Positions 36,001 through 42,000 of a stretch of DNA of 64,000 nt are shown piece after piece. A program made the position numbers. The stretch lies in NCBI RefSeq assembly GCF_013167455.1, contig NZ_CP038328.1. One strand, 5' to 3'. The DNA comes from Escherichia coli O157:H7. GTDB lineage: Bacteria > Pseudomonadota > Gammaproteobacteria > Enterobacterales > Enterobacteriaceae. The first letter of the stretch is position 1. Each line of letters begins with the position of its first letter.

Positions 36001-39000
36001 TGCTGTTGCCGCTCTCCGGATTTATCATCGCGATACGGTCAGCCAGCAGCAGTATGTTGCTCAGTGGCTGGCCATCAGTATCCTCAATCCCTGCACCAAT
36101 CCCGGCCACATAGGGAATGCCGTCTTTCGTTTTTTGAACCTTCAGCATGTACAGCGCAGCCAGGTCATCATTTGTGTCCTTCTGCACGCGCTGTATCTGC
36201 TGTATAGTGGCGCTCTGGTTCTCCAGCGTTTTACTGACCGTCTGTGTGATTTCATTGCGGGTTTCCGTGATGGTGGTCTTCATCTCCGCCATCTCATCCG
36301 CAAGCTGGCTGTTGTCTATCAGCTCCCATAGCCCCTGAGCCAGATGCAGTTTTCCTATTTTTTCCCGGAAAAATTCCAGATACCCTTCACCATCATTGCT
36401 GGGCTGCCCGCTGACTTCCACAAACGCAGATTTCCCCACCAGGTTGACGCTGCGCACGTAAAACCAGAAATCCGTCCCCGGCTTAATCCGGCTTCCCTGG
36501 ACAGTCCACTGACTGCCGCTCCCCAGATAACGGGCAGATTTTTCCACCTGTGCCGTGTTCGTGATGCGTTTTTCCGAAAACCAGAACTCAAACTGCACCG
36601 TCGGGTCATACACCGCCAGCACCGGTACCGCCGTTATCTGAAAATACCCCGGCGTCAGTTCAATGGTGGCGGGTTTTGCTGGCGCGTTAATCCGGAAGGT
36701 GGTGATGGCCGGTTCCCCCTGCTGGCCATAACTGTTAATTGCCCTGACTGTCAGGGTGTATTCCCCGAGCGGCAGACCACTGAAACGATGCTCTGTATCC
36801 GCAGTGATGGCGGTGGTCACCAGACGGCTGTCCTGACCGCTTCCACTGGTCAGGCGCAGACTGAAGCGCACGCCCTTCACCACCCGCGGCGTGTCCCATT
36901 TCGCCTGCGCCAGATACTGGCTGTCAGCTGCACTCACCTCCACCGTCAGGTGCTGCACTGCCGGAGGGATGACGCTGTTCAGGGTGCCGCTCTGGTCGCC
37001 GTCAAAGTGCGCCCCGTTATCCACGATGGCTTCTTTTTCCGGTACGTGCTGCACTGCCGTGATGGCAAAGGTGCCGTCCGTGTTTTCCCGGATGGAGACA
37101 CAGCGGAACAGGCGACGACGCAGTGACGGCAGGGAGAGCCCCCACACACCGTATGTCTCCACGCCATCCGGCAGGGTGCTGACCTGTATCCGGTCCGGCG
37201 CGGGGTGTGCAGTGATGGCCACGCTCACCGGCTTACCGCTGCCGTTAATCAGGTTCACCGTGGCGGCACCGGTCTCCGGCAGGGTCACCTCACGGTCCAG
37301 TGTCAGGGTGCGGCTGGCGGCATCGATGGACAGGATACGTCCGCCGGTCATGGTCCCGGCATAGTCGTTATCACAGATTTCAATAATGTCACCGGGTGTG
37401 TGACGCAGCCCCTGTGACCCGAGCGTGAAATCCACCGTCTGCGTTTCCAGCAGTCCGGTCTTTATCACCCACAGCCCGGCACGGTGGGCCTGACCGCGAC
37501 TGGTACAGCCGAACGCATCCATCTTCAGCAGGTTGCGCCCGTAGCGCAGTATGGCTTCCGGGTCTTCCACCAGTTCCGTGGAGGTCTGCCAGCCGTTCTG
37601 CGGGTCGGTGTAATTCACCTCCACCGCCGTGTGGCGGTCCTTCAGGGCGCTGAAGCTGTAGCGAAACCCCACGCCGTTATCATCCACCACCACATCACTG
37701 TTGGTGTACGGCCACACCACATCCGACGGACTGTCCTGAACGAACGTCAGCGTCTGGCCGTTCCATACCGGCATACAGCGCATCGCCGAGCAGAAATCAC
37801 TGAGAACGTCCCACGCCTTACGCTGTTGTGACAGGTACGCATTAAAGGTCATCCGCGGCTCTGTGCCCCCGAAACCATCAGGGACCATCTGGTCGCAGTA
37901 CTGCGCAATGGCATACAGCGCCCACTTGTCAACATCCGCGGCCCCCAGGCGTTTTCCCATGCCGTAGCGCGGGTGAGTCAGCATGTCCCACAGGCACCAG
38001 GCCGGGTTGTTGCTGTATGCCGGTTTCAGGCTGCCGTCCCAGATGCCGCTGTACGTGCGTTTTTCCGGGTCATAGTTTGACGGTACCTGGATGATGCGAC
38101 CGCGGATATGGTAGTTCACCGTCATCTGCTGACCGCCAAACTGCTCCGCATCCACCTGCAGCCCCACAATCGCCGTGTTCGGGTAGCACTGTTTCACATC
38201 GATGATTTCGGTGTATGACGACCACAGCGTTCTGTTCTGCAGCTGGTCCGTGGTGCTGTCCGCCGTCTCCCGGACCATCCGGATGTTAAAGGGACGGGGA
38301 GGCAGATTATCCAGAATCACCGAAGCGAGGAACTGTGAGGTGGTCTTGCCGTTAATGGTGACATCCTTTTCCGTCACCCAGTTACCGTTACGCTGCAGCT
38401 GAATCAGCAGGCGGACGGATGCCGGGTTACGGTCACCCTGTGAGGTGGTCTGCACCAGTGACTGCACCCCGAAGGTGACCCGCAGGCGGTCAATGTTCGC
38501 GGACGTAATGGTGCGCGTCACCGGCTTTGCCTTCGTCACTTCCACGCCCAGTGCGGTTTCAGAGCCGGATGACTCAAAACCTTCCGGCGGTGTCTGCTCC
38601 TGCTCCCCGGCGCGCCAGACCGCGGTCACACCGTGTATCACGGGATTGCCGTCCGTGTCCGTCAGTGGGGTTTTGTTCACCAGAATACTCTGCAGCCCCT
38701 TCACCGGACCTTCAATCGGCCCTTCACCAATGGCGTCAATCACGCTCATCATCTGCGTGGACTTAAGATTGTCCTTTGCCTCTACCGGCGTGTGCCCCTT
38801 GCCGCCCCCTTTACCCACTCTGTCCCCCTCTCCTGTCTGATGTCTGAATCTGTTTATGCCAGAAAACAACAGGCACCCCGGAGGGTGCCTGTGTCATGAC
38901 GGAATAAAATTTCTGAAACTCTTCACATTTCCGGCAATTGCCTGTAGCCGCAATAATGACGCTGCATTACTTTTTTGATGCCTGAAAAATAACTCCATAA

Positions 39001-42000
39001 CGTTAATCTTCATCGTTCTCTCCCGCAGCTCCGCTAACTCTGCGGGATTTTTTTATTTTCATCCCCGCCCGATAACCACCACTTTCCCGTCTCCGCCCTC
39101 ATCACGGGTGCTGATGTCCTGGGATATCCGTCGTGAACCAACCAGCATTTCACCATAAGGCACCGGCATCGGGTTCCCCTGGGCAATCATGTTATCCAGT
39201 GACGAAAAATACGTGTTCTGTTTACCGTTATCCGTCGCCCTGTACTCCGGTGTTTTTGCCTTCGGTGCCAGCATCTGGGCCACACCGCCCAGTATCATGC
39301 TGGCACCCAGTGAGAACAGCATCGTGGTGGCAGAAAAACCACCGGCTGCCAGGGCTGAACCCCATAACGCCATTGATGCCCCGGCCGTGAAGAAAGAGCC
39401 CACGATGGCTGCCGCCCCCAGCACAATCTGCAGTCCACCCTTTCCGGCCCCGGCCAGTCGCGGCACAATATGGATGACCGCCCCCTCACCCAGAGGTTCG
39501 TGAAGACGGGCGTACACCGCCTCCGGTGCCGTGTCCTCACCGCGAATACGTATCTGGTACCAGCCTTCGTTCATCTGACGGCGGAATCCCGGCATCTGCA
39601 GCGACAGGGCACGGATGGCTTCCGCTGCCGTGTTCACGTACAGGCTGAGGCGGCGGCCAAATCGTTGCAAATCCCCGTGAAGGCAGATGCGTGCCAGTGG
39701 CGGTGACGCCAGACAGAATGCGTTCGTCGTTGCCATTTTTCAGAATACCTCTCCCGTTTACTCAGTTGTTCAGGCAGATGGTGAAGCAGTTCACCGTTGC
39801 CGCAGTATATGGCGGCATGATTGGCCACCGATGCGCCAAAGCAGCACAGCAGGATATCGCCCGCCTGTGCAGAGGACAGGGGCACCCGGTAAAAACCAGT
39901 CGCCGCCATATTGTCCAGGTAAAGGTTCTGACCGTTGCGCCACCAGTCATCCTCACGCTCAAAATCCGGCAGCGTTATCCCCGCCAGATGGTATGCATCC
40001 CGGAACAGGGTGTAACAGTCCGTCACCCCGTGCTCAAAACGACGCCCGGTCAGGTGCGGCACACAGCGGAATTTATGAATTTCCCCCCGGCAGACCAGCC
40101 ACCAGGGCAGGGCACTCTTTATCTGCAGCCGCCGGTCGGCCTCGCTCAGCCAGGGCAGACCACCAGGGTGGCTGTGAACCAGCGCCACAATCTCCCCCTG
40201 CATCTCTGCCTGCAGCCAGTCTTCCGGCGCAATACGAAAATACGCCTCCGGCTCTGCGGAGATATTCACGCAGGGCTGGTACCGTTCGCCCTCCGGGGTG
40301 CCTATCACGAAGCCGCACGACTCCGCAGGCGCACACCGCCGGGCATGCACCAGAATCGCTGATTCAGTCTGTGTCATAAAACAGGATTTACTGCGAAAGT
40401 TTATTGATGGAAAGGAAACCGCCAAAATTAGCCACCATGCTGCGCATCTCACACCCGCGCATGCACTTGCTGCATCTGTCCTTACGGATATCCGTGGTGG
40501 GGTTGTCGAACTCATCCGCCACCGCAGGACCGTTATACCCGCATTCATCTCCCCGGTAATCCCACATACAGGTATTCGCCAGCATAATGCGACCGGGAAA
40601 CAGCGCTCCGTCCGTCTCCGTCGGTGTTGCCAGCACAAACGAGGCTGTCATGGCCGTCAGCTCTGACATCTGCTCCACCACCCAGCGGTCGCTCAGCTCC
40701 TGCTCCGGGTCCGCTTCCGGATTGCCCGCCACAAAATTCACCGCATCCAGAAAACGGGCATACACCCGGCGGCGGACCACCGTGGCCCCCACCAGGCTCT
40801 GCAGGTCCTCCGCCATTCCGGTGACCAGACCGAACAGATTCGACACCGTCAGCGACGGGCGGGCACTGCTGCCCTTCCCGTTCATCTCAAAACCGCTGCC
40901 GTCAATCGGGTATGCCTGATATTCCCGCCCCTGCCAGGTAACCGCCTCCCCTTTTTCATTCAGCTCATTGCAGAAAAAATACCGCTCACCACCCTGCACC
41001 GTCAGGTCGATTTCCCAGAGCACCACCCGCGGTGACTGCTCTGATTTAACCGACTCGTTCAGACTTTCTTCGTGAATATCCTGCATCAGTTCACCACCTG
41101 CTTAAACTCCGCACTGAACTCAACGCGCAACATCCCGACCCGCGCAGACCACCCGGCACAGGTCACCTTTATCTGCCGGTATGCATAGGGTGGCTTCCAC
41201 AAAAATGCCTTCCAGCCTCCGTGCTCTGCCAGGAACGCTTCCAGATGCCGGGCCTCCTCCCGGGTCACGGAAAGCGTCACACGGTATGTTTTCAGGTCAG
41301 CATTCAGCCCTGCCGCCATACGCTGTGAGTACCCGTCACCAAAACGCACTTCACGCACCGATGGCTGCGAGTTCACCTCCATATCCGGCTTCACTTTCCA
41401 GCGAAAGGTTTTCATCGCCCGCTCCCCGATAACATACCGCCATCACGCAACTGCAGCCGGAGCTCATCCTGCGCCCCCTTGCGGGCCATGTCATACACCG
41501 CCTTCATCAGCTGCGGCCCCGCCTGTCCGTTGGTGCCGTCGTTCTGAATCACCACGTGATTGTTCTGATTAAAATTAATACCTTCCGCCCGCCGCATCTG
41601 CGCCGGACTTCCGGCACCACCCACATAACCACCTTCCGCATAGCCGCGCATCAGACGGTAAAGATTCCCCACACCTATCCGGCTGGTTGCCTCTTTCGTG
41701 AAAACAAACTCCCCGCGGTGAACTATCCCCGCAGGCTCATATTTGCCGCCCGTCCCCGTAAATCCTCCGGTCGCGAAATGGAAGTTCGCCGCCGCAGCCT
41801 GAATGGCCGTCCCCGAGGAAGCAGATGCACCACCACCGAAAGCACCGCCAATGGCGCTGCCGATACGCCCGACAATGCCCACCATGGCCTGTTTAAGCAG
41901 GATTTCTGTCATCATGGACAGCACCGAACGGGTGAATCCCCGCCAGTCTGCCTCTGCACCGGTCAGCATCGCCGCCATATTCTGTGCAATACCGTCAAAG

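Follow-up and report, generated by a model that had tools for sequence, protein, structure and literature searches.

The closest described counterparts of the element considered here, the spacer between tail genes I and J of a lambda-like prophage in Escherichia coli O157:H7, are small RNAs (sRNAs) reported from two other pathogenic strains. The spacer lies in a 64,000-nt stretch of contig NZ_CP038328.1 (assembly GCF_013167455.1), hereafter the window, to which all unlabelled coordinates refer. In the Sakai strain of enterohemorrhagic E. coli (EHEC), EcOnc22 (prophage Sp15), EcOnc23 (Sp14), and EcOnc24 (Sp11) were described as homologous Hfq-bound RNAs of the plus strand; for EcOnc22, the Hfq peak obtained by cross-linking and analysis of cDNAs (CRAC) is on the antisense strand, the northern band is approximately 85 nt long, and the RNA is destabilized in the Δhfq mutant (Tree et al., 2014, Mol Cell 55:199, Table S2; PMC4104026). 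In enteropathogenic E. coli (EPEC) O127:H6 E2348/69, the 83-nt sRNA PasB (NC_011601, 1466343..1466261, minus strand) is encoded antisense to E2348C_1436 and E2348C_1437, in the interval separating these two genes of prophage PP6 (Pearl Mizrahi et al., 2021, Sci Adv, Table S6; PMC8550237). The stability of PasB depends on Hfq (Fig. 3A), 37 of its interactions were captured by RIL-seq, in which interacting RNAs are ligated and sequenced (Table S5), and its log2 fold change is −6.8 in one DESeq2 contrast of Table S2 (PMC8550237). Its mean count is approximately 480–1080, as against 5–15 for the flanking genes. More recently, PasB was described as lying within an operon whose genes encode phage structural proteins, with NC_049945 among three RefSeq example phages (Zhu, Shabalina & Storz, 2026, bioRxiv 10.64898/2026.05.13.724894). 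The link between PasB and EcOnc22–24 is drawn in neither PasB study: the note on an EHEC homologue is blank in the PasB table of Pearl Mizrahi et al. (2021; PMC8550237), and the EcOnc names do not occur in Zhu et al. (2026).

The I–J spacer of the window very probably holds this already described Hfq-dependent sRNA gene (EcOnc22–24 in Sakai, PasB in EPEC), antisense to the tail operon. It comprises 240 nt (38819–39058) between the stop codon of I (39059–39061) and the GTG start codon of J (38818–38816), both on the minus strand. An initial annotation, made by reading the sequence, had noted here a spacer of about 240 bp with two hairpins and a 39-aa open reading frame (ORF), all of which are present, and had taken a plus-strand terminator inside a minus-strand operon to suggest either an antisense transcript or a small inserted element. 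That suggestion is borne out, as the spacer is identical to the EcOnc22/23/24 locus and homologous to the PasB locus; related phages with the same spacer and no transcript had been named as the opposite outcome, and the transcript is documented in the literature. Base for base, the spacer is the same as the I–J spacers of Sakai Sp15, Sp14, and Sp11, and that of phage NC_049945 is identical to it as well. In EPEC, E2348C_1436 and E2348C_1437 are the gpI and gpJ homologs, the spacer between them aligns to the window spacer over its whole length, and the window RNA is approximately 75% identical to PasB. The PasB northern probe, AATCCCGCAGTGATCGCGGAGCT, corresponds to the plus-strand hairpin (hairpin A below), and hence PasB ends at the very terminator that the first reading had picked out. 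Judged by these alignments, PasB and EcOnc22–24 occupy the same I–J locus and are variants of one family. According to the literature on identical and homologous sequences, the RNA of the window spacer would be expressed as an 80–90-nt RNA that is bound by Hfq and dependent on it. The features of the junction, with the evidence for each in parentheses, are as follows.

38964–39054, plus strand: predicted sRNA of the PasB/EcOnc22–24 family, approximately 91 nt (PasB homology, EcOnc22 peak position, fold)
39021–39054, plus strand: predicted Rho-independent terminator, hairpin A with an 8-bp stem, an 11-nt loop, and U7 (terminator scan, fold, alignment, PasB probe)
38989–39011, plus strand: conserved sRNA body (AUAACUCCAUAACGUUAAUCUUC), candidate seed with an anti-Shine-Dalgarno-like CUCC (alignment A3)
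38970–38977, plus strand: U-rich stretch near the 5′ end (CUUUUUUG), possible internal Hfq contact (alignment)
38952–38957, plus strand: putative −10 box AATAAT of the sRNA promoter (positional conservation in an otherwise divergent stretch)
38909–38930, no strand assigned: CRP-like palindrome with the core TCTGA-N6-TCACA at 38912–38927 (9 of 10 core positions matched)
38861–38892, minus strand: hairpin B and the adjoining UGUUUUCU, sense-strand terminator-like, just upstream of J (terminator scan, fold)
38894–39013, minus strand: 39-codon ORF that we do not regard as a gene (ATG start, conservation, Pfam, ribosome profiling)
38819–39058, no strand assigned: I–J intergenic spacer (I stop and J GTG codons; 240/240 against the Sakai Sp15, Sp14, and Sp11 spacers)
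39059–39736, minus strand: flanking tail assembly gene I
35339–38818, minus strand: flanking host-specificity or tail tip gene J (GTG start at 38818)

The 5′ end of the predicted RNA was placed from the −10 box (±3 nt), and its 3′ end would fall in the U7 run. The RNA spanning 38964–39054 has a minimum free energy (MFE) of −20.3 kcal/mol (z = −4.1), and the whole spacer folds better than its shuffled versions on both strands (z = −3.3 and −3.6). Hairpin A, which the initial annotation had recorded as a plus-strand hairpin with a T-run, has stem arms at 39021–39028 and 39040–39047 around its 11-nt loop and is followed by T7 at 39048–39054; it is terminator-like on the plus strand in the scan (z = −3.4). 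A terminator of this kind, with its long U tail, would form the Hfq-binding module. In an alignment of 20 sequences (A3), seven consensus pairs of the terminator stem, CCCGCAG/CUGCGGG, are invariant, whereas the loop varies in both sequence and length. The consensus fold of this alignment consists of the terminator only and leaves the body unpaired; a single-stranded body is typical of Hfq-dependent sRNAs. For the window RNA taken alone, the MFE fold puts part of the body in short variant-specific hairpins. Within the body, UAAUCUU is invariant and AACUCC nearly invariant, with no consensus pairing; the remainder varies around the conserved AACUCC-N-UAAC-N-UUAAUCUUC, and a variable linker then leads to the terminator. 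The candidate stretch considered for target pairing is AACUCCAUAACGUUAAUCUUC. Nearer the 5′ end, a conserved GCGUUA and the U run begin approximately 7 nt downstream of the −10 box; a U run at the position of 38970–38977 is present in all variants, and CUUUUUUG is a possible internal Hfq contact. The order of elements on the sRNA strand is constant across the spacer variants: palindrome, 24-nt divergent stretch, −10 box, 5′ end, body, linker, and terminator.

Placing the published EcOnc22 peak on this RNA requires a correction of coordinates, because Table S2 of Tree et al. (2014) refers to an older version of the Sakai genome; the shift was recalibrated on two other sRNAs. StxS1 (EcOnc15) must fall between PR′ and tR′, and with the end of tR′ at 2926079 in the new record this gives a shift of +123 to +130, while AgvB1 gives +137 to +146. 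The 1999 phage record and the new chromosome record show no net difference in length over the interval from the spacer to stx1A. A shift of +128 to +140 puts the EcOnc22 Hfq peak at 38970–39030 of the window or up to 12 nt further right, within the predicted RNA, and in the current Sakai record the EcOnc22, EcOnc23, and EcOnc24 peaks have the same offset within all three I–J spacers. The published EcOnc coordinates are, as calibrated on AgvB1 and StxS1, off by approximately +128 to +140 nt relative to NC_002695.2 at 1.94–2.93 Mb, and the error incurred by mapping them directly is larger than these sRNAs are long.

Matches to a 281-bp query around the spacer occur in 801 of the 5,426 complete genomes of E. 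coli, at a median of three and a maximum of nine places per genome, always between genes annotated as a tail assembly protein and gpJ; the carriers are mostly O157, O145, O111, O121, and other Shiga toxin-producing E. coli (STEC) or EPEC. The same query matched 147 phage records, mostly of Stx-converting phages, including a 100% match to phage VT1-Sakai (prophage Sp15). For comparison of variants, I–J spacers were gathered in two ways, by a conserved 16-mer and by similarity to gpI, the latter being independent of spacer content; this yielded 77 distinct spacers, 66 of them in a class of approximately 230–260 nt. Among 80 IMG/VR loci with gpI at least 96% identical, hairpin A is kept in all 78 scorable junctions. 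A scan of genome contigs for the hairpin A pattern proved too generic, giving chance matches across unrelated phyla; among the matches listed, only E. albertii seemed relevant.

The putative −10 box keeps its position across 54 promoter variants, being TATAAT in most families, AATAAT in the window, and GATAAT or TATCAT in others. Upstream of it, within an A/T-rich block, the palindrome matches 9 of the 10 positions of the CRP core TGTGA-N6-TCACA; its central N6 is variable, in contrast to the near-invariant half-sites, and a copy accompanies each sRNA unit in tandem arrays. It might be a site for CRP bound to cyclic AMP (cAMP), in which case the sRNA would be on under carbon limitation and off with glucose, and the I–J junction would be a cassette site swapping seeds behind a nutrient-sensing promoter. 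The higher level of PasB reported in lysogeny broth (LB) than in glucose-containing Dulbecco's modified Eagle's medium (DMEM) would fit catabolite control. We nonetheless consider a CRP site doubtful, given that a 9/10 match to the core is expected by chance approximately 2.4 times per 64 kb, that the palindrome is centered approximately 44.5 bp upstream of the predicted transcription start and not at the class II-like distance of 41.5 bp, and that the block may just as well be an UP-like element. If the site were genuine, a multicopy prophage sRNA would be under nutrient control.

The second hairpin of the initial annotation, given there as 38871–38893, is hairpin B (38869–38892), with a 10-bp stem and a 4-nt loop (z = −5.9). 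On the minus strand it is trailed by UGUUUUCU, which the first reading had missed and with which it appears in the scan as a minus-strand terminator; in several variants, the stem carries a compensatory change from C:G to U:A (CAGGCATCC...GGATGCCTG). The promoter scan found no sense-strand promoter serving hairpin B. Late transcription is antiterminated by Q and should read through it. The I–J spacer of phage lambda is only 60 nt long (NC_001416, 15445–15504) and has, at the position of hairpin B, the GC-rich hairpin GAAACCGCC-UGCG-GGCGGUUUU followed by GUCAUUU, which folds but is not flagged by the simple terminator scan; the N-terminus of J in the window is similar to that of lambda J. The sense-strand hairpin before J seems ancestral to the junction and not part of the insert. 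With lambda carrying its own hairpin at this place, the true insert would amount to approximately 180 bp, that is, one promoter–sRNA–terminator unit; the 240 bp of the insert first proposed hold for the spacer as a whole, and only approximately 180 bp of it are inserted relative to lambda.

Other junctions carry different cargo at the same point. An approximately 870-nt class, which accounts for about 17 of the 78 close junctions (L131, L137, L143, and others), contains an antisense Cu,Zn superoxide dismutase gene, sodC (Pfam Sod_Cu, E = 4e-32), with its own terminator; in this class the sRNA promoter, the CRP-like palindrome, and hairpin B are replaced, whereas the sRNA body and hairpin A are kept downstream of sodC. 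Tandem sRNA units were observed as well, two in L032 and L070 and at least three in L090 and L114. Their bodies and terminator stems differ, a copy of AAATGTGAAGAnnTTCAGAAATTTT belongs to every unit, and the units are set apart by leftover pieces of the gene I 3′ end, which suggests unequal recombination between phages. In an approximately 360-nt class (L156 and L183), the sRNA unit is kept, while hairpin B is replaced by another sense terminator, AAAACCCCGGTATC...GATACCGGGGTTTCTGTTT, and approximately 100 nt of unrelated sequence, and J starts with ATGGGAAAAGG. Judged by these variants, the I–J junction is a recurrent cargo site, with one sRNA unit, tandem units, or sodC placed beside an ancestral hairpin.

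The unit in the window would be a self-contained "moron", placed in the late tail operon as an antisense transcription unit. Its promoter, of the sigma-70 type and with the −10 box AATAAT (38952–38957), would drive a plus-strand RNA of approximately 85–91 nt, whose end at hairpin A and U7 would lie directly ahead of the I stop codon. Synthesis of the RNA would take place in the lysogen, where the tail genes are silent, and the RNA would bind Hfq and require it for stability. Most likely it acts in trans in the lysogen: the conserved AACUCC-N-UAAC-N-UUAAUCUUC, which the consensus fold leaves unpaired, would pair with mRNAs of the host and of islands. For the window variant, we infer the precise 5′ end as well as the seed and the targets; several of the differences from PasB fall in the candidate seed, so that the targets may not be the same.

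Several observations weigh against the identification or limit what it can be taken to include. The Rfam scan, run at E ≤ 1 over 36000–42000 and at gathering thresholds over the whole window, gave no family match in the spacer, and the identification therefore rests on literature coordinates and alignment. The promoter scan did not flag the window copy, which has no recognizable −35 element. The predicted lengths of 91 nt for the window and 98 nt for EPEC exceed the published 85 and 83 nt, although 91 nt agrees reasonably with the 85-nt band. Covariation in the terminator is uninformative: the stem is invariant and hence offers no covariation support. With zero shift of the published coordinates, the Hfq peak would be placed over hairpin B, on the same strand and still inside the spacer. 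Finally, the candidate seed of the window differs from that of EPEC PasB at several positions.

Of the alternatives to an sRNA acting in trans, a role mainly in cis survives best, though we regard it as improbable. The RNA would pair with the late tail mRNA at I–J and direct its cleavage, or alter the expression of J (and of lom and stf) or late transcription upon induction, with trans targets being secondary. Such a role would draw on the perfect complementarity of approximately 91 nt to the late mRNA and on the position directly after I, which is kept in every junction examined; a dual role would be compatible with both. However, the RNA is abundant in lysogens whose tail operon is silent, as indicated by the PasB counts relative to the flanking genes, and the 37 partners of PasB in EPEC are Hfq-mediated and in trans. 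The junction is retained from phage to phage, whereas the body and the loop change, and the presence there of sodC or of several tandem sRNA units is hard to square with a tuned cis role.

Less probable still, and in our estimate very unlikely, is that the RNA has no dedicated function and that the spacer consists of terminators or insulators and a conserved recombination linker left by moron traffic, for example as the remnant of a sodC 3′ region. The junction is clearly mosaic, and the approximately 870-nt class does have the sRNA body and hairpin A after sodC without the sRNA promoter. Nevertheless, a stable Hfq-bound transcript is documented, conservation of the −10 box and of the UUAAUCUUC/AACUCC core stands out against flanks that diverge, and whole promoter–sRNA–terminator units are duplicated in tandem, all of which favors a functional sRNA.

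The 39-codon ORF on the opposite strand, noted in the initial annotation together with a GGAGAG Shine-Dalgarno (SD) sequence, does not hold up as a gene. The GGAGAG at 39017–39022 is 4 nt upstream of the ATG at 39013 but belongs to hairpin A, in its 3′ arm. Across the 66 spacer variants of the 230–260-nt class, the aligned start codon is ATG in 51; it is ACG in 12, and three more have lost the frame in other ways (15/66 lost altogether). Frame lengths among the variants are 10, 15–17, 22 (the EPEC reference), 29, 31–32, 39–41, or 54 aa; among these, truncated frames of 10, 15, and 29 aa occur in variants closely related to that of the window. Within the 39-codon class, the variable sites are distributed 24/24/28 over the three codon positions, with no third-position bias, and the ratio of non-synonymous to synonymous polymorphism (pN/pS) is 0.8–1.1 against the one cleanly alignable divergent member. 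A Pfam search of the 39-aa peptide gave no match. Ribosome profiling had been named as a check on translation; the published supplements of the Sakai ribosome profiling (RIBOseq) study of small genes contain neither the coordinates of the ORF nor its peptide, which is weak evidence, as multicopy regions are possibly unmappable. Conservation of the N-terminal MKINVxELF just reflects that of the sRNA core on the opposite strand. We judge the ORF to be a by-product of the sequence, not a conserved gene, and reject it both as a gene and as a type I toxin on grounds of conservation, Pfam, and the RIBOseq supplements, the last of these being weak. A type I toxin–antitoxin-like pair, in which the plus-strand RNA would serve as antitoxin over the SD sequence and the first 14–17 codons of the minus-strand 39-aa peptide, is the least credible of all the alternatives: its geometry is suitable, with the sRNA (38964–39054) fully complementary to the SD sequence, the ATG, and the ORF's 5′ part, hairpin B as a sense terminator after the stop codon, and a 39–41-aa frame open in several divergent families, but the start is ACG or the frame lost in 15 of the 66 variants and most others are truncated to 10–32 aa, the codon-position and pN/pS values give no sign of purifying selection, the peptide MKINVMELFFRHQKSNAASLLRLQAIAGNVKSFRNFIPS is by inspection charged throughout, with no hydrophobic helix or long hydrophobic stretch, the SD sequence is buried in hairpin A, and neither a sense-strand promoter in the scan, nor a Pfam match, nor an entry in the Sakai RIBOseq supplements was found.

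Several described sRNAs were considered and rejected as identities of the spacer RNA. The Rfam-curated sRNAs (AgvB, AsxR, Esr41, STnc100, and others) gave no covariance-model match in 36000–42000 at E ≤ 1, AgvB and STnc100 matching elsewhere in the window. Esr41 is located in SpLE1 and not at the I–J junction, and PasA, PasC, and PasD lie in the Q/lysis region and not in the tail region. HnrS (EcOnc10–12) was considered because, like the spacer, it is multicopy (up to nine per genome), but its position rules it out: in Sp10, approximately 5 kb separate EcOnc11 and AgvB1, as against approximately 20 kb between the I–J spacer and the AgvB site.

The prophage that carries the spacer (compared over 33045–58988) is a relative of Sakai Sp15 and not Sp15 itself, with 96.7% identity over the tail genes and 99.5% over the head and lysis genes. 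Compared with Sp15, it has no IS629 in the scaffold gene, and its J is one uninterrupted ORF (split in Sakai); the similarity ends at 58988, where Sp15 carries stx1. Other Rfam matches at gathering level in the window are at 59076–59137 (plus strand) and, on the minus strand, at 59138–59330, 59417–59476, 61767–61942, and 20911–21124; the families listed for them are, at the PR′ moron site, AgvB (an anti-sRNA) with STnc100 convergent to it, together with a tRNA, the sok antitoxin RNA, and STnc560.

Beyond correct annotation of the spacer as an sRNA gene of the EcOnc22–24/PasB family, in place of a small protein or an unexplained insert, the finding matters little; modestly useful are the link that joins PasB with EcOnc22–24 in one family, the testable handle on regulation offered by the conserved −10 box and the CRP-like site, and the recognition of the I–J junction as a recurrent cargo site.

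Among more distant systems, the predicted sRNA resembles AgvB, AsxR, and other moron sRNAs of lambdoid phages in being prophage-borne, short, and, going by its counterparts, Hfq-dependent, with a putative promoter and an intrinsic terminator of its own, and in occupying a conserved phage position in a modular arrangement of constant and variable parts. It differs from them in sequence and in site, as theirs is the Q/PR′/lysis region downstream of PR′, where the window has its AgvB copy (59076–59137). The sodC morons in the tail region of lambdoid prophages share with it the insertion point, the antisense orientation, and the downstream sRNA body and hairpin A, whereas the window has the sRNA unit only and no sodC. 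With EcOnc22, EcOnc23, and EcOnc24 the agreement extends to identical DNA on the same strand, and the northern band of approximately 85 nt fits the predicted 91 nt, although the window prophage differs from Sakai Sp15 and the original report gives for these RNAs an Hfq peak only, without ends, promoter, or targets (Tree et al., 2014). From PasB, the window variant is distinguished by a 6-nt gap in the body, by the terminator loop and several candidate-seed positions, by the eighth, outer U–A pair of its stem, which is absent in EPEC, and by its promoter, since the EPEC copy has a good −35 element (TTCACA-16-TATAAT, 11/12) that the window copy lacks. The two nevertheless share the gpI–gpJ locus and the antisense orientation, the seven consensus pairs of the terminator stem and U7, the conserved 5′ GCGUUA, the U-run, and the UCUUC core, and, upstream, a homologous putative promoter and CRP-like block.

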